From positions 1 through 64,000 of the IMG/VR virus record IMGVR_UViG_3300017911_001697: a stretch of 64,000 nt of DNA; one strand, given 5' to 3'. The notes under the pieces were generated by a model, which searched no databases, was not told the DNA's origin, and was given only the letters and a program-made list of their open reading frames with translations. Positions within the stretch are counted from its first letter, which is position 1. Every line of letters begins with the position of its first letter. The DNA is from a virus (lineage: Duplodnaviria > Caudoviricetes). Positions 2,045 through 48,875 of the stretch are shown piece by piece. The position numbers were made by a program, and so were the translations under genes.

Positions 2045-2837
2045 TATCTTTTACTGCTTCCTTTAAGATGTTGAGTTTACTGTTTTGTGTTTTTGCATAA
2101 TACAGTAACGCCTGTGTGTCTTTAGGGAAACAATGACCTCCAAAGCCAAAGTTGCCATCTGGGCCTGGTACTTTTAAATGACTATTGCCAATGCGAGGAT
2201 CGCATTTAAGCATGTCAGTAAATTGATCCCAGGTGCTGTGTGTTTGTGATGTTTCAAATAATTCATACATCTCATTAAAAAATGCAACCTTGGTTGCTAA
2301 GTAACTATTTATGGTATATTTTAGTAAACTAGCAGTAATGAGGTCTGTTTTAAAGGTAGGACAAATCTTTACTGAACTGTGTTTAACGTATGCTTTTTCT
2401 ACAAGTTCGCAGTCTCGCCACTTGCCTCCTAACACTTGCATGTGAGGATTGAGAAAGTCTTGGTGTGCATTTGCTTCTGTGAGAAACTCTGGATTATAAA
2501 CAAGTTTTACAGCAAAGTCTTTTTTCATTTTAGTTAAGTGCTTGGGTGTAATTGTGCTTTTGATAACCACAATGCCTTTATAGTTTTGATCATATAAATC
2601 ACTCAGCACCTGTCTAACAATACTAACGTCTACATCGCCGCTGTCGCCTACTGCTTCTGGTGTAGGCACACATATAAATGTTATTGCAGGATTGAACTCA
2701 ACAAGCTCTTGGATAGTGTTGTTATTCTTTGCAGTGTCTACTATAAACTGTTCTACGTTCTTGTCAAACCCATTAATGACACTGCCGCCAACAAAGCCGG
2801 CTCCAATTATTCCTAGTTTTAAATTACTTTGGCTCAC
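2016..2837 (-). CDS. ugd: UDP-glucose/GDP-mannose 6-dehydrogenase family (short form lacking the C-terminal UDP-binding domain)
   Basis: Rossmann GIIGAGFVG, ICVPTP, IKST, YNPEFL, catalytic GFGGHCFPKD; GTG start. Confidence 0.85.
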   Translation of the reverse strand: MSQSNLKLGIIGAGFVGGSVINGFDKNVEQFIVDTAKNNNTIQELVEFNPAITFICVPTPEAVGDSGDVDVSIVRQVLSDLYDQNYKGIVVIKSTITPKHLTKMKKDFAVKLVYNPEFLTEANAHQDFLNPHMQVLGGKWRDCELVEKAYVKHSSVKICPTFKTDLITASLLKYTINSYLATKVAFFNEMYELFETSQTHSTWDQFTDMLKCDPRIGNSHLKVPGPDGNFGFGGHCFPKDTQALLYYAKTQNSKLNILKEAVKDNAKKRKKTV

Positions 2838-3075
2838 CTTCGTACCACTCTATAACTGTGTTCACACGAAAACTTCTGTATGCATCTTTGTCCAAGCACC
2901 ACACAACTATGTTGTCGCTTTGAGGATCAAAATCTTTTACAACTACATTTTTACCTGCAACCTCTGAATTCAGAGTGCATGGCATAATTCTAATTTCTTC
3001 AGTGTTAATTTTTTTGAATACTACTGTTACAATGCCTTTTTTGGCTAAATTTATAAATTTACCTGGATTGTTCAT
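2824..3075 (-). CDS. WYL_2/DUF2693-like small SH3-fold phage protein
   Basis: VTVVFKK...RIMPCTL...VVWCLDKDAYRSFRV pattern; ATG at 3075 overlaps the upstream TGA (ATGA), so the ORF-track start at 3135 is probably too long. Confidence 0.65.
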   Translation of the reverse strand: MNNPGKFINLAKKGIVTVVFKKINTEEIRIMPCTLNSEVAGKNVVVKDFDPQSDNIVVWCLDKDAYRSFRVNTVIEWYEGEPK

Positions 3076-4744: not shown

Positions 4745-5409
4745 TTTTTCTCCTCAACAAATTTATAATTGTCGAATAATTTTAGTGTGAAAACACTACA
4801 ACCAGTGTAGTTGTCATCTAACTCTATCTTTACTTCTTTGTTTGTTAATAGTTCTTCTAATGATATATTTACATGTTTTAGCATAAAACTTGGATCATTT
4901 TTAGTTGTAATATAAAACGGAATAATTTTCCTACCTTTTATGATCGCATCACTGAGAGGTATATCAGTATACTGCTTGAGAAGGTTAGCATGAGCACTGA
5001 TTATGAGTACAGACTTTCCCATGCTAACCTTAACATCAAACACTCTTTTATTCTGATTGTCTACCTGAAATAAAAAGAAGTCCTCTGTTGATATTCTATC
5101 TACTTCGACTGGTCTAACCTGTATAAACTTTACATGCTTGTTTTTAGGATCTGTAATAATTCTATACAAGTTCCAATTTTTATCTCTGAGGATATCAACT
5201 TGTTCGTTTGTGAATATTGCTTTTTCATACTTTGAATCTAAATCATCGTTGGGCTCTTTGCTCATAGAAACTATTGTGCCATCTTCCTCGTGCCACAAGT
5301 TCCAATCAAGATTTTTGATATGCTTGATTAAGCCATCAACGTTTCCGCCATGTTCATTTTTGGCTTCCATGAAACGTTTCTTTCTTGCTAACGCTGCTTC
5401 AGATACCAC
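4741..5409 (-). CDS. hypothetical protein, paralog of 4091-4744
   Basis: 222 aa; ATGA-coupled to the downstream paralog. Confidence 0.75.
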   Translation of the reverse strand: MVSEAALARKKRFMEAKNEHGGNVDGLIKHIKNLDWNLWHEEDGTIVSMSKEPNDDLDSKYEKAIFTNEQVDILRDKNWNLYRIITDPKNKHVKFIQVRPVEVDRISTEDFFLFQVDNQNKRVFDVKVSMGKSVLIISAHANLLKQYTDIPLSDAIIKGRKIIPFYITTKNDPSFMLKHVNISLEELLTNKEVKIELDDNYTGCSVFTLKLFDNYKFVEEKK

Positions 5410-5590
5410 TATTTTTTTCCTGCTTGGCTTTATTTTTATTCACGTGATAGTTGTATGTTTCTATAGACATTTCGTGTGCACTGAGTTTCGATAGATCATA
5501 ACCTGTAAAACCATACCAATGCATTTTTTTAAGTTGTTCCATTGCTAATCTTCTTTTAAAAACTCTTTCAAAATCTTCCTCAGATTCCAT
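5399..5590 (-). CDS. small hypothetical protein
   Basis: 63 aa; fills the gap and overlaps both neighbours in the operon. Confidence 0.55.
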   Translation of the reverse strand: MESEEDFERVFKRRLAMEQLKKMHWYGFTGYDLSKLSAHEMSIETYNYHVNKNKAKQEKNSGI

Positions 5591-6443
5591 AGTCCTTCTC
5601 CATTTGTTTTATCTTAGTTTCGTCCATCCAATCTTTTTCCACGTAATGAAATGGCATCAGTTGCTGGAAGTTGCCTATTTTAAAATTTGTATAAGAGTCG
5701 TAATATGTTGGCAACGAGTCAGACCATTTATCATTAACCATTGTTTCTGGTATATCTTGTACATGACTTTTCATGTGTACAAACGTTGGAAAATTATTTG
5801 TTAACGGTTTAGTACATTCGTGCTCAATACCAAGCAACTGCATTGCTAAAGCATAAGCAACATCTCCACTTAGCCACGCAGGCTTACCGTGAGGCATGTA
5901 TTTGTAAAACATTCTTTGCCAATGCTGAAATATTATCTCAATCATAGCAAACAATTCACTTGCTAAATCACTTTTCTTAAAATAAAAGAATGCAGTGTAC
6001 ACGTTGGGTAAATCATTTTTAACAAAATATTTTCTATAGTAATCACTACTAACAATATCACCTCGATATGTTCTCACATTGGTTGTGGCCCACACATCTC
6101 TGTCTGCTAACATATCCCACCAATGACTGACATCAACTGGAAATATCATGTCTGTGTCTAGTATAACAGTTTCGTCATACGGTGTCATGTAGTAATATTT
6201 CCACTTGTTGTTTATTTTCCAACTGGTGCTTTTTGCATCATCGTTCCATGGAATATCAATGATGTGATCAAAAACTTGTTTGTGTTTCGACTGTATTAAT
6301 TGTTTTGTTTTTTCATCAACGCACACAGACAAATTACTTACTTTGCTTTGCGTAAGTTTCAAATTGAGTGCCAGAGCATAGGCCTGCTCTAAATAATCAA
6401 CAGAGCCATTGTTCTGTGCTATTACAATATAACCTTTACTCAC
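5580..6443 (-). CDS. GT-A nucleotide-diphospho-sugar transferase (GT8-like)
   Basis: GYIVIAQNN, TPYDETVILDTDM (DxD), PNVYTAFFYFKK, FVHMK, PFHY. Confidence 0.7.
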   Translation of the reverse strand: MSKGYIVIAQNNGSVDYLEQAYALALNLKLTQSKVSNLSVCVDEKTKQLIQSKHKQVFDHIIDIPWNDDAKSTSWKINNKWKYYYMTPYDETVILDTDMIFPVDVSHWWDMLADRDVWATTNVRTYRGDIVSSDYYRKYFVKNDLPNVYTAFFYFKKSDLASELFAMIEIIFQHWQRMFYKYMPHGKPAWLSGDVAYALAMQLLGIEHECTKPLTNNFPTFVHMKSHVQDIPETMVNDKWSDSLPTYYDSYTNFKIGNFQQLMPFHYVEKDWMDETKIKQMEKDYGI

Positions 6444-6606
6444 TCTTTATTTTCCAATTTTCTTTGAACAAACAAAATCTATCATGCCCTTCTGGTGTTC
6501 GATACACAAACTGCATTCCTAATAATTGTACTACAACACCCTCATTTACTCTGTCAAATGCTGGTTCGCTGTGTACAATATAATCTCCTAGTTGTGGCTT
6601 TTTCAT
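6436..6606 (-). CDS. small hypothetical protein (56 aa; not in the ORF track)
   Basis: Read by hand: MKKPQLGDYIVHSEPAFDRVNEGVVVQLLGMQFVYRTPEGHDRFCLFKENWKIKSE; ATGA overlap with the upstream stop and GTGAGTAA overlap with the next start. Confidence 0.6.
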   Translation of the reverse strand: MKKPQLGDYIVHSEPAFDRVNEGVVVQLLGMQFVYRTPEGHDRFCLFKENWKIKSE

Positions 6607-6842
6607 AACTTGATTGCTAACAATAAAAATATAGCCATTAAAATTATATTAGTAAAAAATATCAACACTGCTAAAATTGTGTGATACCATATCCATCTAG
6701 TTCTATATGCATTTTCTAATGTTAAATCTTCAGGGTCAACTTCAGATTCCATTGTTGGAAGGTTATGCATCATAACCTGATCCACCTTGTTTTTTTCAAT
6801 AGGCGCATCAAATAAACTTATAAATTTTTTCCACCAATTCAT
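6603..6842 (-). CDS. small membrane protein with C-terminal transmembrane helix
   Basis: C-terminal hydrophobic run WIWYHTILAVLIFFTNIILMAIFLLLAIKL. Confidence 0.65.
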   Translation of the reverse strand: MNWWKKFISLFDAPIEKNKVDQVMMHNLPTMESEVDPEDLTLENAYRTRWIWYHTILAVLIFFTNIILMAIFLLLAIKL

Positions 6843-41186: not shown

Positions 41187-42203
41187 ATGAGTCAACTGTT
41201 TAAAACAGCGGCCTGCTTTACGGATATTCATTATGGATTAAAGCAAAACAGTCGCTTACACTTAGAAGACTGCGGTAGATACATTGACTGGTTTATTGCT
41301 GAAGCAAAAGCAAGAAATGCAGAAACATGTATATTCTTAGGAGACTGGAGTCATCACAGAGCAAGTATTAATGTTGCAACAATGAATGCAACAATTAAAG
41401 ATTTAAAAAAGCTCAACGATGCATTCGAAAAGGTTTATTTTATCACAGGCAATCACGACTTATACTATCGTGACAAACGTGAAATGAACAGCATCGAATA
41501 TGCTAGAGATTTAAGTAATTTTGTGATGGTCGACGACATGTTCTTGGAAGATGACGTTGCTATTATACCGTGGCTGGTAGGAGATGATCACAAAGTGGTT
41601 TCCAAGATGGAGTGTAAGTACATGTTTGGTCACTTTGAACTTCCTTATTTTAAAATGAACGCAATGGTAGAAATGCCAGACCACGGAGGCATCAACGATA
41701 AGATGCTGAGTGGTCCCGAATATGTGTTCAGTGGACATTTCCACAAACGACAATACAAAGGCAATATTCATTACATTGGTAATGCTTTCCCACATAACTA
41801 TGCAGACGTTGATGATGATGAACGTGGTGCTATGTTTTTAACATGGGGCGAAGAACCTGTGTATGTGAATTGGGAAGAGTGCCCAAAATACAGAGTGTTC
41901 TCATTGAAGGAGTTACTTGATGATCATGAGAATCTACTTGACAAATACACTTATGCTCGTGTAAAATTAGATATCAGTGTATCGTATGAAGAAGCAACAT
42001 TCATTAAAGAAAAATTTGCAGAACAATACGGTGTGCGAGAATTACAGTTGATTCCCATCAAGGAAGAGGAACAACAATTCGAAGGCAGTGAAATTAAATT
42101 TGAGAGCGTGGATCAAATTGTTATACAACAACTAGAGACAATCGAATCCTCAACTATAGAAAGACAAAAACTAATTGACATTTATAACGAGTTAGAAACT
42201 TAA
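41187..42203 (+). CDS. gp47: recombination endonuclease subunit, gp47/Mre11/SbcD-like
   Basis: FTDIHYG, FLGDWSHHR, GNHDLYY, FGHFE, SGHFHKR phosphoesterase motifs. Confidence 0.92.
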   Translation: MSQLFKTAACFTDIHYGLKQNSRLHLEDCGRYIDWFIAEAKARNAETCIFLGDWSHHRASINVATMNATIKDLKKLNDAFEKVYFITGNHDLYYRDKREMNSIEYARDLSNFVMVDDMFLEDDVAIIPWLVGDDHKVVSKMECKYMFGHFELPYFKMNAMVEMPDHGGINDKMLSGPEYVFSGHFHKRQYKGNIHYIGNAFPHNYADVDDDERGAMFLTWGEEPVYVNWEECPKYRVFSLKELLDDHENLLDKYTYARVKLDISVSYEEATFIKEKFAEQYGVRELQLIPIKEEEQQFEGSEIKFESVDQIVIQQLETIESSTIERQKLIDIYNELET

Positions 42204-42204
42204 T

Positions 42205-43974
42205 ATGCTAAAAATTAAAAACGTTACCGCCCGCAATTTCATGAGCGTGGGTAACAGCACACAGGCAGTTAATTTTGACAACTGTCAGCTCACACTTGTA
42301 CTGGGTCACAACTTAGACATGGGCGGAGATGGCAGTCGAAACGGCACAGGTAAGACCACTATTATCAATGCACTCAGTTACGCACTGTATGGTGAAGCAC
42401 TTACAAACATTCGTCGTGATAATTTGATCAACAAAACAAACGGCAAAAATATGATGACTACCGTTGACTTTTCAGTGGGGGACACCGAGTATCGTATTGA
42501 ACGTGGCCGGCGACCAAACACATTGAAGTTTATGGTCAATGGTGTCGAAGACAGCGACCAAGAACAACAAGGCGATAGTAGAGAAACACAGAAAGCAATA
42601 GAAAAAATTATTGGTTTCCCTCACAACATGTTCAAACATTTGGTTGCACTGAACACATACAGTGAACCGTTTTTGGGCATGAAAGCAAATGATCAGCGTG
42701 ACATGATCGAGCAACTGCTGGGCATAACTGATCTAAGTTCCAAGGCAGAACTACTCAAAGAAAAAATCAAGAATATCAAAGACAGCATAAAGGAAGAAGA
42801 AATGCGTATCAATGCTGTCAAAGACAGCAACGAACGTATTGAAAAAAACATCAAAGAACTAGAAAGTCGTAAAAAAGCCTGGGAGGCCACACACGACAAT
42901 AAACTAACTGAAATGGAAACTGCGATCACAACATTAGCAGAACTTGATGTTGACCAAGAGATTGAAACACATAAAAATAATGTGTCTGCAAAAGAGCAAG
43001 CGGACACTATTAAATTGCTAGAAAAAGAATTAAAAACCACACAAACAAGTTTTGACAGATCCGAAAACACACTCACTGAATTGCACAGCAATTTACAAAG
43101 TGCTGTCGACGGTGTTTGTCCTGCATGTGGACAAGGAACTGCACACTTAGATACTCATGCTGAGTACACCAAAGAATTAGAAGAAAAGATCAAAGAAGAA
43201 CAAGACTACAGAGATGAAAAGTCTGGTCGCTTGTCAGAAATTGAAGAAGCAATAAGTGTGCTAAGTGCAGAAAATTTTGTTGTCGGTGAAACGTTCTATG
43301 CCGCAGTGGAAGAAGCATATGAGCACAAACACAACTTAGAATCTCTTGCACAGCAATACGAAAGCAAAAGAGAAGAAACTAATCCATACGATGAACAAAT
43401 AGACATGCTCAGAGAAACTGGCATACAAGAAATTAGTTTTGATGACATCAACGAATACACATTCCTAAAAGATCACCAAGAGTTCTTGTACAAATTGTTG
43501 ACCAGCAAAGACAGTTTTATCCGTAAAAAAATCATTGATCAAAACATAGCATACTTGAATCACAGACTTGCATGGTACTTGGACAAATTAGGTTTACCGC
43601 ATGATGTAAAATTTGCCAGTGACCTAAATGTAGAGATCACAGAGTATGGTAGAGACTTAGACTTTGACAATTTAAGTAGAGGAGAACGTAACAGACTTAT
43701 ACTAGGATTGAGTTGGGCGTTCAGAGACATTTACGAAAGTTTAAACAGACCTATGAACTTGATGTGCATCGACGAACTTATAGATTCCGGAATGGACACC
43801 ATGGGCGTGGAAAATGCATTGAGCATTCTCAAAAAGATGAATCGAGAACACGGCAAAAATATTTTTCTTATCTCACACAAGGAAGAACTTGTTGGTCGTG
43901 TTAACAATGTGTTAACTGTTGTAAAAGAAGGTGGCTTCACAATGTACAACACAGACACAGATTACATCGATTAG
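42205..43974 (+). CDS. gp46: recombination ATPase subunit, gp46/Rad50/SbcC-like
   Basis: Walker A GSRNGTGKTT, zinc hook CPACGQ, signature LSRGE, Walker B IDELID, ISH. Confidence 0.95.
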   Translation: MLKIKNVTARNFMSVGNSTQAVNFDNCQLTLVLGHNLDMGGDGSRNGTGKTTIINALSYALYGEALTNIRRDNLINKTNGKNMMTTVDFSVGDTEYRIERGRRPNTLKFMVNGVEDSDQEQQGDSRETQKAIEKIIGFPHNMFKHLVALNTYSEPFLGMKANDQRDMIEQLLGITDLSSKAELLKEKIKNIKDSIKEEEMRINAVKDSNERIEKNIKELESRKKAWEATHDNKLTEMETAITTLAELDVDQEIETHKNNVSAKEQADTIKLLEKELKTTQTSFDRSENTLTELHSNLQSAVDGVCPACGQGTAHLDTHAEYTKELEEKIKEEQDYRDEKSGRLSEIEEAISVLSAENFVVGETFYAAVEEAYEHKHNLESLAQQYESKREETNPYDEQIDMLRETGIQEISFDDINEYTFLKDHQEFLYKLLTSKDSFIRKKIIDQNIAYLNHRLAWYLDKLGLPHDVKFASDLNVEITEYGRDLDFDNLSRGERNRLILGLSWAFRDIYESLNRPMNLMCIDELIDSGMDTMGVENALSILKKMNREHGKNIFLISHKEELVGRVNNVLTVVKEGGFTMYNTDTDYID

Positions 43975-44017
43975 CCAATAAACATAGTCACCTGCATACA
44001 TTGTCGGTAACTATATT

Positions 44018-44446
44018 TTGATGAGTTATTGGATATATCAGGGAAAACAAATTGACGAACTACCCGAAGGATGCGAAGCATTCGTATACTTAATAACGAA
44101 CAAAAAGAACGGCAAGAAGTATGTGGGTAAAAAATTAGCAAAATTTAAAACCACAAAGCCACCACTTAAAGGTAAAAAAAGAAAACGCAAAGGCACAAAA
44201 GAAAGTGACTGGAGAGATTATTGGGGGAGCTCAGACAACCTCAAGGAAGATGTAGAAAAGTACGGGGAAAAAAGTTTTATCCGAGAAATACTACATCTTT
44301 GCCCTAGTAGAGGAGTTGCTAGTTACTTAGAAGCAAAAGAACAATTTGATCGCAAAGTTCTCTTGACAGACAATTATTATAATGGTATAATCAATGTAAG
44401 AATTGGCGGTTCAAAAATTTTACGAGAATCACTAACAAAGAAATAA
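44018..44446 (+). CDS. minimal GIY-YIG nuclease (Seg-like catalytic domain only)
   Basis: FVYLITN..NGKKYVGKK, WRDYWGSS, F.REIL..C, YYNGIIN. Confidence 0.85.
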   Translation: MMSYWIYQGKQIDELPEGCEAFVYLITNKKNGKKYVGKKLAKFKTTKPPLKGKKRKRKGTKESDWRDYWGSSDNLKEDVEKYGEKSFIREILHLCPSRGVASYLEAKEQFDRKVLLTDNYYNGIINVRIGGSKILRESLTKK

Positions 44447-45045
44447 TTATAATTGCATTAAGGCACATCAAGGCATAACAAGGCATACCTGGCTTAACAA
44501 GGCACACACATAGGACCATACACCACCCCACCGAGGCAAATAATATCGGTTTCCTTGAGGCTCCGTATCCACGGCGTCAGATTCTGGAATGTATGGCGGT
44601 ACATGAGATACAAACAAACGACAACAGTATTGAACGATTCAGGCTCTGAGAAAAAGCAACCTGAGAGTTAGTATAACTAAACTCGTCAAGGTTATACTGG
44701 CTTCCGTGGGACACCAGTGACGGTAGTGTATGAGGGGATAAGGCCCACCACCTCTTAACAGCACCCGAGATTGAGATGGCGATGCTCATCATGATGACAT
44801 CCATTTTTTTATTCACCCGGCAACGGGTGAATTATGGCTCAACTTTCATGATAACTTCTAAGATCTAAAGATCTTATAAAGATATCTTGTAAATGAGTGA
44901 TTCGAGTGAAACGAGAGAACGAATGTAACAAGATAAGACACGAAGTGTCTGTTAAATGTAATTAATTGTAACAATCCACTAAAAAGTAAACTAAAATATT
45001 AATCTATACGTTAAATAATTTGTAACCATCTCTGAGGATTACAAC
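44447..45045 (+). ncRNA. ~600-nt structured non-coding region (candidate ncRNA and/or replication origin)
   Basis: No credible ORF; AAGGCA repeats, multiple hairpins, a GNRA-capped 9-bp stem, possible pseudoknot (see findings). Confidence 0.45.
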
Positions 45046-46317
45046 ATGAAAAAACTTTTAGGATTGATGCTTTTTCCTTTATGTGTGAGTGCACAAACTT
45101 ACACAGACGACATAGCAACCATAATCAACAACAACTGTGTGACTTGTCATCGTGCAGGTGGCATAGGACCAATGAGCTTTGAAACTTACGAACAAGTGCG
45201 GCCATGGGCTCCGTTAATTCAGTTACGAGTAGCAAACAGAGAAATGCCACCATATGCATACGATCATGGCATAGGTATACAGGATCTCGAAGGCGATTGG
45301 CGTTTATCACAGGAGCAAATAGATGCAGTAGTAGAGTGGGTAAATTCTGGGTCGCCATATGGTAATGCAGACATTGTTCCACAACTGCCTGATATGCCAG
45401 ATCCTGATGATTGGCGTTTTGCAACAATGTTTGGAGAGCCCGATTTAATTGTTCCCTCACAACCATATGACATACCTGCAAATGGTAATGATCTGTGGAG
45501 TAAAGAAATTGCAGAAACAGGCATAACAGAAAACAGATGCATAAAAGCAGTACAAGTTAAGCCGCGAGGAGATGCATCTGCTGTAGTACATCACGCTAAC
45601 TCTAGTTTTCTTACCGAAGAAGGCAGAGAAGGCATGCTCACAGAATATGCTATGGGCAAGTGGGGAGAGATTGTTCCTCAAGGTGTATGCAGAACGTTCC
45701 CTGCACTAGCCAAAGTACAATGGGATATACACATGTTCCCAGGCGGAGTTGGTGCAACAGCGAACGGTGATATGATAGAGGATAACGTAGTTGAAATTGG
45801 TATTTGGTTCTATGACGAGTTTGAAGAAAAGGATTTGACTTATAGACAAGATTTGTCATTGTACAGAATTGGAGACCAAGCAGACATTGCTATCCCTCCA
45901 CACGGCACATACATGACACAAGGCTTTCATACATTTGACCATCCGGTGCGTATAGACAGTTTTCAACCACACGGACATTTGCGTATGAATGCTGCGAGCC
46001 TCGAAGTATTTTATCCTGAAACAGGACGCACAGAAGCAATAAGTCAGATATCAAACTGGAGTGCTACTTGGCACCACAGTCACATATATGCACCAGATGT
46101 TGCTCCTCTACTGCCTGCAGGTGCTGTTCTAATACTGAAGCAGTGGTATGATAATACTGCTGACAACCCAAATAACCCTGACCCTGATATGTGGGTATAC
46201 GGTGGTTCTAGAACAGCAGACGAAATGACGCATGCATGGATTGCTGTAACACACTTAGATGATAAAGGTTATAACAAACTATTAGAGGAAAGAAATGAAA
46301 AAACTATTGGTGATTAG
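45046..46317 (+). CDS. secreted cytochrome-c-motif / copper type II (PHM/DBH-like) monooxygenase
   Basis: Signal peptide, CVTCH heme motif, VVHHA, QPHGHLR, DEMTHAW Cu-ligand pattern. Confidence 0.75.
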   Translation: MKKLLGLMLFPLCVSAQTYTDDIATIINNNCVTCHRAGGIGPMSFETYEQVRPWAPLIQLRVANREMPPYAYDHGIGIQDLEGDWRLSQEQIDAVVEWVNSGSPYGNADIVPQLPDMPDPDDWRFATMFGEPDLIVPSQPYDIPANGNDLWSKEIAETGITENRCIKAVQVKPRGDASAVVHHANSSFLTEEGREGMLTEYAMGKWGEIVPQGVCRTFPALAKVQWDIHMFPGGVGATANGDMIEDNVVEIGIWFYDEFEEKDLTYRQDLSLYRIGDQADIAIPPHGTYMTQGFHTFDHPVRIDSFQPHGHLRMNAASLEVFYPETGRTEAISQISNWSATWHHSHIYAPDVAPLLPAGAVLILKQWYDNTADNPNNPDPDMWVYGGSRTADEMTHAWIAVTHLDDKGYNKLLEERNEKTIGD

Positions 46318-46591: not shown

Positions 46592-46785
46592 AGCATTTCG
46601 TTATTGTTTTTGCCTGATCTTGCTGCGTTAAACTTGTTGAGTGTTTTAATCAACAAGTCGCGATCCAACGGAGGTAGTAACCATGCTTCACTCCATGAGA
46701 CTGCCCCTTCGCTGTAGATAACTAACTCTGCGATTTGATTGCTAAGGGCAGTTTGATCGTTCTTGAGCTTCCCAAGATACGCCAC
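46588..46785 (-). CDS. tail-assembly-chaperone C-terminal module (likely the -1 frameshift extension of 46809-47678)
   Basis: GAVSWSEAWLLPPLDRDLLIKTL resembles gp51/GT-type C-termini; frame is open back to the slippery site at 46821. Confidence 0.65.
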   Translation of the reverse strand: MAYLGKLKNDQTALSNQIAELVIYSEGAVSWSEAWLLPPLDRDLLIKTLNKFNAARSGKNNNEML

Positions 46786-46808: not shown

Positions 46809-47678
46809 CTAGGAAGCCGTGAAAAAATTTACAGGGTCAAAGTTTACTCTGCTTTCGAACGTGTATGGTTCTTCGTTTTCGTCTACACATTTTTCACATT
46901 GCATAGACATTTCATGATTAATACCAATAGCATTGATTTCTTGAATTTTTCCTTCAATTAATTTGCCAACAGAATTTTCAGCATTGTTTAAAAATTCTGT
47001 GATGTGATCTCTGTCGTCAACTACCACAGATTCGCCGTCTTCGTCTATTACTGTAATACTAGCAACACTGTCTACGATTAAAGAAAAGTTTAATGCTGCA
47101 ATCTGTTTGAAGTTGTCGTTAAACAGACGCAGTCTTTCCATTTCGTCTGTGACGTCTGCTAATGCTTGTAAACTTCTTGTGCTTTGGAAATTTGTGATAC
47201 CTGCTTGAATTGTGCTGGCATAAGTGAACGGACGAATTTCAATAGTTAATGTGTCATGTCCAACAGTGTATGAATCTTCGAGCTTACCCATTGTGTCAAT
47301 GGCTGCTTCAACGCTGGCAACACCTGATTGTGATTCTTTACACTTTGGGCATTCTGCTGTTACTTCAACTTCGTCGCCGTATGTAGCACCTTGAATAGCA
47401 ACCAGCAACACATCAATGTCACTGCTCATCATTGCTCTAGCGTTTTTAACATTAGGCACACAACTTTGAATAACTTGTGCAACTGCTTCTCCATTCAGTA
47501 AAGCATCAGGATTTTTCATAATCATTTCGTCTTTTGCTGTCATAGAGAACACAGGTAACTCCTTGGTTTCAGGCATCTCTACAACTTCATCTGTGTAAAA
47601 ACGACCTTCACTCGGAATAGGAGTGAAAAGTTTAGGTGCTCTAAAATGAGCACTTAATGGATTGTGTTTGTTTGTCAT
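46809..47678 (-). CDS. baseplate hub assembly/tail chaperone, T4 gp26-like
   Basis: NPLSAHFRAPK...LPVFSMTAKDEMIMKNPDALLNG, DIDVLLVAIQGATYG, CPKC and CEKC zinc motifs. Confidence 0.75.
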   Translation of the reverse strand: MTNKHNPLSAHFRAPKLFTPIPSEGRFYTDEVVEMPETKELPVFSMTAKDEMIMKNPDALLNGEAVAQVIQSCVPNVKNARAMMSSDIDVLLVAIQGATYGDEVEVTAECPKCKESQSGVASVEAAIDTMGKLEDSYTVGHDTLTIEIRPFTYASTIQAGITNFQSTRSLQALADVTDEMERLRLFNDNFKQIAALNFSLIVDSVASITVIDEDGESVVVDDRDHITEFLNNAENSVGKLIEGKIQEINAIGINHEMSMQCEKCVDENEEPYTFESRVNFDPVNFFTAS

Positions 47679-47770: not shown

Positions 47771-48346
47771 ATGAATCAATCAGACTACTTTGCAGAATTA
47801 AATGTTGATGCAACACAATTAGTGCAAACATGCAACGAATTTCTTGCTAATGACCCACCTGTGATAAAATATAGGACTGATTCTGAAATAATACACGATG
47901 TGACTACAGATAATGATTCGGCTGATTTTGGTAAATCTTTTCGATATTTTGAATTGTACGAAATGAATATAGGGGAAGTTATACAAAGTTGCCCTTTTTT
48001 AGAACAAATCAATATCAGATATAAGATATACAGAGCTGGTGTGTTTTCATTGCATCCTAACTATTACTATAGGTTACACACCGATATTGGCAGAGGGGTT
48101 GGTATAAACATGTTGTTGTCTGGACACGACAGTCATTGTTTGTTTGTTGATGACACTGACTTTATAGAATTAAAATACAAAAAGAATAAATTATACTTGT
48201 TTAACACACAAAAACCGCACACTGTGATTAATTTTTCGCAACAAAGATATATGTTTAGTCTAGCATTTGCACTAGACAAGGATAAACTAAGTTACGAAAA
48301 ACTGTTCAAACAATGTAAAAGATTAGGGTATTATGAGAGTAACTAA
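47771..48346 (+). CDS. 2OG-Fe(II) oxygenase-like protein
   Basis: HxD (RLHTDIG) ... H (LFNTQKPHTVIN) facial triad, jelly-roll pattern. Confidence 0.65.
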   Translation: MNQSDYFAELNVDATQLVQTCNEFLANDPPVIKYRTDSEIIHDVTTDNDSADFGKSFRYFELYEMNIGEVIQSCPFLEQINIRYKIYRAGVFSLHPNYYYRLHTDIGRGVGINMLLSGHDSHCLFVDDTDFIELKYKKNKLYLFNTQKPHTVINFSQQRYMFSLAFALDKDKLSYEKLFKQCKRLGYYESN

Positions 48347-48875
48347 CTTTAAGAGCTTCCAAGAAACCACAGCAAGAGAATGGCAATTGATAGGAAAAGC
48401 TCATCGAAAAGAACGCAAGCATCTTGTGAACAGAATTGTTCAGCAATTAAAACTGCTTGAGGACACTGACGGCGGATTTCCTGTTACCATACTAGAACAC
48501 TGCCTACAAACTGCTACTCGAGCTTATCGTGCTGGTGAGGATGACGAGTATATTGCAGTTGCTTTATTGCATGATATTGGCGATGCAGTGAGTCCTGAAA
48601 ACCATGGCGAAGTTGTTGCAGCCATGCTAAAACCTTATATAAGTGAAGCAAACTATTTTTTACTCAAAAACCACACTGACTTTCAAGGATATTACTACTA
48701 CCACTACATAGGTAAAGATCGAAACGCCCGCGATCAATACACTGACAGTCCTCACTATGAACACACTGAAAAATTTTGCAGACTGTATGATAGCCAAAGT
48801 TTTGATGCAACTTACAAATCTGAACCATTAGAATTTTTTATTCCTTATATTGAAAAACTGTTAAGTAAAAACTAG
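48333..48875 (+). CDS. HD-domain protein, PhnZ/TmpB-like diiron ligand set
   Basis: H56, H80-D81, H91, H114, D153; EHCLQTATRA..AG...ALLHDIG. Confidence 0.7.
   Translation: MRVTNFKSFQETTAREWQLIGKAHRKERKHLVNRIVQQLKLLEDTDGGFPVTILEHCLQTATRAYRAGEDDEYIAVALLHDIGDAVSPENHGEVVAAMLKPYISEANYFLLKNHTDFQGYYYYHYIGKDRNARDQYTDSPHYEHTEKFCRLYDSQSFDATYKSEPLEFFIPYIEKLLSKN

Follow-up and report, generated by a model that had tools for sequence, protein, structure and literature searches.

A large conserved RNA of marine T4-like myophages, an apparent relative of the orphan motif Polynucleobacter-1, located next to a SegE-type GIY-YIG endonuclease gene

RNAs that are large, ornately folded and rich in conserved helices are rare, and several turned out later to be new machines such as ribozymes, omega-RNAs and RNA cages. 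The RNA described here resembles GOLLD and ROOL, since it is carried by phages, is several hundred nucleotides long, contains many covarying helices as well as GNRA loops and has no known function. It differs from both in that neither its sequence nor its structure matches their Rfam models, and in that its neighbours, in T4-like phages, are gp46 and a GIY-YIG gene and not tRNA genes. A second comparison is offered by HEARO and the omega-RNAs of IscB and TnpB, in which a structured RNA likewise adjoins a small nuclease gene on the same strand and short segments vary between elements. However, the variable segments of our RNA are 10–13 nucleotides long, are duplicated inside the RNA and do not lie at its end, transposon ends are not present, and the neighbouring nuclease is of the GIY-YIG type and not a guide-dependent RuvC or HNH nuclease. 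The nuclease itself is comparable to the freestanding Seg homing endonucleases of T4 (SegB beside tRNA genes, SegE): it has a SegE-type GIY-YIG catalytic domain and is encoded by a freestanding gene that occurs at differing loci in related phages, in this case adjoining a conserved gene for a stable RNA. In contrast to the T4 enzymes, it comprises only 142 amino acids in total without a C-terminal DNA-binding domain, and it is present at the gp46 locus in nearly all relatives sampled instead of being patchy.

Among the described motifs, the closest to our RNA appears to be Polynucleobacter-1 (Rfam RF01718). According to its 2010 description, this motif of unknown function is mostly found downstream of a gene family that resembles ORF 218 of the cyanophage P-SSM2, and it had not been encountered in any purified phage (Weinberg 2010, PMC2864571). 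The Rfam model has 141 nucleotides and covers a 5´ domain only, whereas the RNA of the window has about 450 nucleotides and contains a further conserved 3´ module. The context annotated for RF01718 is an upstream GOS11034 or PSSM2_218-like gene; the RNA of the window follows a GIY-YIG gene of the family phrog_447.

The window, that is the whole stretch of 64,000 nucleotides that was analysed, comes from a 73.9-kb viral record in IMG/VR (IMGVR_UViG_3300017911_001697) and belongs to a marine T4-like myophage. Genes for a gp47-like phosphoesterase (41187–42203) and a gp46-like SbcC/Rad50 ATPase (42205–43974) are followed by the gene for the SegE-type GIY-YIG endonuclease (44018–44446, plus strand), the RNA, a gene for a cytochrome c-like protein with a signal peptide (45046–46317) and, on the minus strand, the gene for a T4 baseplate protein (46809–47678). 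ARAGORN detected no tRNA or tmRNA in the window. Cultured relatives are distant: Methylophilales phage Melnitz matches the nuclease gene only, and Pseudomonas jumbo phages match gp46. When the region and two other subtypes of the RNA were compared with cultured phages by blastn, the RNA remained unmatched.

The gap of 599 nucleotides between the stop codon of the nuclease gene and the next gene is 72–87% identical over 400–500 nucleotides in many IMG/VR phage contigs, and the nucleotide matches always lie just after the nuclease gene. The conserved part is a structured core of about 450 nucleotides on the plus strand (44506–44954) with 14 helices supported by covariation. Conservation stops at about 44954, and the AT-rich tract that follows (44955–45045), already pointed out in the earlier note, is present but not conserved.

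The covariation check on homologous regions proposed in that note was positive. In a structure of 72 base pairs compared across 30 homologues, 98.4% of the base-pair cells are paired, and 47 of the 72 pairs show compensatory changes on both sides, compared to 25.6±2.5 in shuffled alignments (none of the 500 shuffles reached 47). Sliding the partners by one to three columns collapsed the signal, with 36–41% of cells paired and only 3–13 pairs with changes on both sides. RNAalifold, applied to 30 distinct sequences, yielded 76 pairs, 47 of them with double changes. For instance, the helix TCAGG/CCTGA is replaced by TGTGGG/CCCACT, TGCAGG/CCTGCA or TGTAAG/CTTACA, and AGACAC/GTGTCT by AGGTCC/GGACCT. 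The strand can be read from G-U pairs at 44735–44753 (30 of 30 sequences), 44607–44631 (27 of 30) and 44729–44761 (27 of 30), which are possible on the plus strand only: since these invariant pairs would turn into A-C mismatches if the other strand were read, the RNA is encoded on the plus strand, in the direction of the nuclease gene. Taken by itself, the folding energy is unusual only to a moderate degree, with z-scores of -2.7 for the plus and -3.0 for the minus strand. Judged from this comparison of homologous sequences, 44506–44954 is a selected RNA structure on the plus strand that is kept by many uncultured marine T4-like phages. The large structured non-coding RNA postulated in the earlier note is thus borne out by conservation, compensatory changes and strand-specific G-U pairs, and it is carried by a widespread group of phages.

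Upstream of the core, on the plus strand, four AAGGCA(C/T)A units are present with a spacing of about 10 nucleotides (44460–44505, with units at 44460, 44470, 44480 and 44499). These repeats had been recognised from the window alone; comparison with homologues revealed that their number varies and that AGGCA units are also located upstream of the RNA in subtypes without GIY-YIG. The previously noticed hairpins ACCGA/TCGGT, CCGT/ACGG and TCAGG/CCTGA were found again at the same positions; a fourth one, ATGTA/TACAT, is present in the window but only a part of the family has it. The helix TCAGG/CCTGA (44639–44664, plus strand; four of five pairs compensatory) encloses the near-invariant sequence GAGAAAAAGCAAC (44648–44660), and a near-invariant 16-mer of this helix region is kept in at least 88 true homologues. 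It is followed by a hairpin of 14 base pairs (44665–44703, plus strand, 44665–78 with 44690–703), in which 11 of the 14 pairs are changed on both sides. This stretch had been interpreted as an H-type pseudoknot, which has to be replaced by the single hairpin, since the 5´ arm covaries with 44699–703 and not with the loop AACUC.

The 3´ module has the same architecture in all subtypes: site A is followed by a U-run and a hairpin with a GNRA loop, and a short conserved linker leads to site B, behind which lie three hairpins, the second of them GA-rich and the third terminal. In the window, a palindrome reported earlier, TCATCATGATGA, is located at 44786–44797, and the GNRA hairpin, also reported earlier, has 8 base pairs and a GCAA loop (44812–44831, plus strand). 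It is located between sites A and B, is preceded by the U-run and has 210 of 216 cells paired. This hairpin is common to all subtypes of the RNA. Site B is followed by the hairpin TAAGATC/GATCTTA (44859–44876, plus strand), which was correctly seen in the window but is variable and optional, being missing or swapped for other hairpins in homologues. The GAGTGA/GAGAGA-type repeats seen at first inspection lie in the GA-rich GAGUGA/GAGAGA region, which is framed by a helix of 8 base pairs (44883–44935, plus strand; seven of eight pairs compensatory); this helix would be the counterpart of the GUUUGAGCGnnAGCGAAAAC hairpin in other subtypes. The terminal hairpin AGACAC-GAA-GUGUCU (44936–44950, plus strand), likewise part of the first description, shows compensatory changes in five of six pairs and likely forms the 3´ end of the RNA. 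Two further candidates were rejected: a helix AUUAUG/CAUGAU closing on site B, in which changes of the 5´ arm are uncompensated, and a partial duplicate of the RNA's 5´ end in front of the GIY-YIG gene, which scored no better than shuffled sequences.

The Rfam scan suggested in the earlier note left the window without a match. Searches of 43500–45600 and 44490–44700 with E values up to 10 returned chance snoRNA-like matches only and no RF01718 (gathering score 37 bits); group I and II introns, RNase P, tmRNA, GOLLD, ROOL, HEARO and self-cleaving ribozymes were also not matched. The link to Polynucleobacter-1 comes from a sister subtype in an IMG/VR T4-like phage contig, L052, in which positions 1465–1611 are a full-length match to RF01718 with 107.8 bits. 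The match comprises 147 nucleotides and begins 13 nucleotides past the stop codon of the orthologous GIY-YIG gene, downstream of gp46. It places the orphan motif in phages, as a mere 5´ domain of a longer RNA. The RF01718 model misses the RNA of the window as well as those of L033 and L041 even at an E value of 10 on short stretches. A covariance model of the A-hairpin-B module, built from the window type only, detected L021, L033, L045 and L068 with E values of about 1e-4, and a second-round model detected L072 (1e-5), L036, a sibling of the L052 type (0.04–0.13), L054 (0.24), L008 (0.59) and L413 (0.66), all at the expected place. From synteny, the shared architecture and these weak covariance-model scores (E 0.04–0.7) we infer that the window subtype is homologous to the most distant subtypes. 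The RNA would then be an extended relative of Polynucleobacter-1 that is not detected by Rfam, and the orphan motif would be extended to an RNA of about 450 nucleotides with a defined architecture. A pattern scan of prokaryotic genomes for the Polynucleobacter-1 core gave 117 scattered matches in unrelated taxa, consistent with chance. A catalogue of candidate RNAs from IMG/VR published in 2023 lists csRNAs of 29–151 nucleotides (PMC10690425) and may hold pieces of the RNA.

The most unusual feature of the 3´ module is a pair of direct repeats of 10 nucleotides each on the plus strand, site A (TCATGATGAC, 44789–44798) and site B (TCATGATAAC, 44846–44855). Three positions of the repeat are variable (T/A, A/G/T and C/G), and in all 49 unique sequences of the window type they are identical in both copies. 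For these columns the mutual information equals the column entropy, and no third column shares the signal. Position 8 is always G in site A and always A in site B. At the homologous places the other subtypes have unlike sequences, which nonetheless obey this rule, with ACAUGAAG twice, ACGUGAAG/ACGUGAAA, CUCGCCACAUGGG/UCUGCCACAUAGG and CUCUGGUAAUGAG/UCUUGGUAAUAAG. Wherever A and B differ, the change is a transition (CUC versus UCU, G versus A), as would be expected if both copies pair with one strand that carries G and U at these positions. This pattern suggests, as a hypothesis, that both sites pair with one common partner. Repeats that change in lock-step are an unusual signature and provide a concrete handle for finding the partner of the RNA.

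A partner in cis was sought in the sampled loci with mutual information and a G-U-tolerant scan, which gave noise only. Several other explanations for the two sites were discarded. Pairing of site A with site B via the palindromic core cannot explain the covarying outer positions; a small ORF spanning both sites (44776–44868) has neither a conserved frame nor conserved stops; and the sites show no consistent relation to the start region of the GIY-YIG gene, either as a mimic or as an antisense sequence. An alignment-free search for transition-tolerant direct repeats did not separate the sites from shuffled sequences by length alone. In L009 and L232, the repeat occurs a third time, in partial form (GCATGATAGAAC), in an insertion after site A.

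The protein encoded upstream of the RNA belongs to a large family, with at least 594 homologues in viral contigs. Its residues 5–125 match Pfam PF19835 (SegE GIY-YIG) with an E value of 1.2e-34 and 119.6 bits (curated cut-off 25), and it matches phrog_447 with an E value of 2e-37. The latter is a family of 148 positions whose genes are common in cyanophages, where they are mislabelled 'NAD synthetase'. A PDB sequence search with the nuclease returned no match. In the protein alignment, the catalytic positions VYL...YVG, R57, E90 and N122 vary little or not at all. The protein consists of the catalytic domain alone, with a Lys/Arg-rich loop at residues 41–61, and ends 17 residues past the domain. 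The earlier note had remarked that the DNA-binding tail typical of homing endonucleases is lacking, which is true, but the tail-less form is the norm for the whole family of about 145 amino acids, whether linked to the RNA or not.

To what extent nuclease and RNA belong together was followed in two samples of loci. The first comprised 80 loci chosen by gp46 similarity alone, and nearly every one that was long enough contains the GIY-YIG gene and then the RNA on one strand. In about 17 of these loci the whole gp46-to-baseplate segment is inverted and nuclease and RNA are inverted along with it; this co-inversion is uninformative, since the pair sits inside a segment that inverts as a whole. The second sample, an unbiased scan for the near-invariant 16-mer of the RNA, resulted in 102 evaluable loci. 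In 74 of them the nuclease gene lies directly upstream, and in 3 an insert separates nuclease and RNA; about 14 are chance matches in coding DNA, and about 11 belong to true but more distant RNA subtypes that lack a same-strand GIY-YIG gene. Among the 88 true RNA loci, 77 agree in gene order and strand. In three related contigs (L172–L174, at about 5220–6788), about 1.5 kb are inserted between the GIY-YIG gene and the RNA.

The upstream genes in the approximately 11 distant loci belong to no known family. In L413, a gene for a PDDEXK_15 'phage putative endonuclease' (2272–2862, minus strand) lies beside the RNA on the other strand; together with a DUF5856 gene (1908–2318) it is located between gp46 and the RNA and replaces the GIY-YIG gene. 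L397 and L447 contain a divergently oriented SegE-type GIY-YIG gene. The neighbourhood of the RNA seems to collect different freestanding nuclease genes. Conversely, GIY-YIG paralogues that are 68–76% identical are located at other loci without the RNA, namely in the cultured Melnitz phage and in L037, L039, L049, L064 and L069. They equal the RNA-linked proteins in length, catalytic residues and Lys/Arg loop, and no protein feature separates the two groups. In the cyanophage ACG-2014j, a match with about 40% identity lies amid tightly packed coding sequences that leave no room for such an RNA. The linkage of RNA and nuclease is tight but not universal, and an obligate ribonucleoprotein explains this pattern less well than does a mobile, freestanding endonuclease gene that adjoins a conserved gene for an RNA.

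In our view, 44506–44954 is more probably than otherwise a gene in its own right that encodes a large non-coding RNA in marine T4-like myophages, and the GIY-YIG gene is a mobile neighbour that does not need the RNA. The RNA would be read from the plus strand, probably either by continuation of the GIY-YIG transcript or under the control of signals within the AAGGCA region, and would most likely act in trans as a stable, compactly folded molecule. One short sequence would be present twice in single-stranded form, at sites A and B, with a hairpin after each copy, and the two copies would pair with, or be read by, a common partner. The GIY-YIG gene would belong to a small, mobile family of freestanding homing-type endonucleases that settled beside the conserved RNA gene; the enzyme would work without the RNA, and the two genes would be functionally independent.

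Such a gene is presumably transcribed. The stretch is matched by contigs assembled from the marine RNA libraries of three studies. Contigs identical to it span 44567–44789, 44725–44908, which runs unbroken across A to B, and 44270–44463, and a 567-nucleotide contig of a relative covers 44500–44955; a relative's contig also reaches into the AAGGCA units. These contigs are a weak hint of transcription, since they do not show ends, strand or level and the libraries can hold DNA; parts of the stretch that they leave uncovered are uninformative. Comparison of the homologues revealed no conserved promoter for the RNA. A perfect sigma-70 site with an extended -10 region (12/12 consensus, TTGACA-17-TGgTATAAT) is located at 44363–44391 inside the 3´ end of the GIY-YIG ORF; it was rejected as internal promoter of the RNA because it is not conserved in homologues, and probably arises as a by-product of the L-T...G-I-I codons or is specific to this lineage. 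After the terminal hairpin, no terminator and no U-tract were found on the plus strand; a terminator-like score was obtained only on the minus strand.

A different proposal, also made in the earlier note, is that RNA and nuclease form a ribonucleoprotein, in which the RNA supplies the recognition that the tail-less nuclease lacks and sites A and B are guide-like. The shared order and strand in 77 of the 88 true RNA loci and in nearly all loci selected by gp46 would agree with this, as would a nuclease reduced to a catalytic domain with a basic loop and short segments that vary between phages, match within a phage and differ by transitions only, as if they paired with one target. However, the RNA is also found without a same-strand GIY-YIG gene or with other neighbours, the paralogues at other loci, including that of the cultured Melnitz phage, lack the RNA without differing in any protein feature, and the guide-like segments have merely 10–13 nucleotides; the co-inversion of the pair adds nothing in favour. 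A search of the sampled loci for a target complementary to the variable sites returned none. In RNA-guided (OMEGA/CRISPR-like) systems nuclease and RNA always occur together, whereas here each occurs without the other; a nuclease gene beside a structured RNA is by itself no evidence for an RNA-guided enzyme. We consider the ribonucleoprotein unlikely. Nevertheless, a purely selfish endonuclease should be patchier, and in the window's own subtype no RNA locus without the nuclease was seen, so that a functional tie may exist in this lineage. A bolder conjecture, to which we would likewise give little weight, is that the RNA is the specificity subunit of a new nuclease particle, with a scaffold RNA that recruits the tail-less GIY-YIG protein and with the 10–13-nucleotide sites A and B pairing with both halves or copies of a target; or that, independently of the nuclease, the twin segments capture RNA of the host or of a rival phage.

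It is quite improbable that the RNA acts in cis, as a 3´ UTR element of the GIY-YIG mRNA through which the stability or expression of the endonuclease is controlled. Its position directly after the stop codon on the same strand and the lack of a conserved promoter of its own would fit, but about 450 nucleotides with 14 conserved helices greatly exceed what is known of 3´ UTR elements, the RNA is retained at loci that have no preceding GIY-YIG gene, and in L172–L174 the two are 1.5 kb apart.

Even less probable is a ribozyme or an intron-like mobile RNA that travels with the endonuclease gene, with A and B serving for cleavage or ligation and both recognised by a single internal guide. In its favour, two identical short sites flank a conserved hairpin, and GNRA loops and tandem G-A motifs are usual in compact catalytic RNAs. 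Against this stands that no ribozyme or intron model of Rfam matches with E values up to 10, that no internal guide column covaries with the sites and that the RNA interrupts no gene. Splicing or cleavage between A and B was rejected as well, since the RNA-library contigs, which cannot show ends, are unbroken and contain no joint.

A replication origin or another site acting at the DNA level, the second proposal of the earlier note with AAGGCA iterons about one helical turn apart, single-stranded hairpins and the AT-rich tract at 44955–45045 as unwinding element next to the recombination genes gp46 and gp47, is scarcely credible, because what selection maintains is pairing in the RNA: the helices retain G-U pairs that mismatch on the opposite strand, the AT-rich tract lacks conservation, and the AAGGCA units vary in number and are found upstream of the RNA core even in relatives without the nuclease. 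The GC-skew check proposed together with the origin revealed a turn near 46600, which coincides with the switch in gene orientation and not with the RNA region.

Two of the neighbouring genes have features of their own. The product of 45046–46317 has 423 amino acids, a signal peptide and a CxxCH cytochrome c motif, with weak matches to Pfam cytochrome c families. Relatives of this protein are encoded in viral contigs at 262 loci, the majority of them without the RNA, and the gene is present in some close relatives of the phage and missing in others (e.g. L007). Further downstream, a gene for a 180-aa HD-domain protein (48333–48875; Pfam HD, weak match to MIOX) overlaps the end of a 191-aa ORF without a known family.
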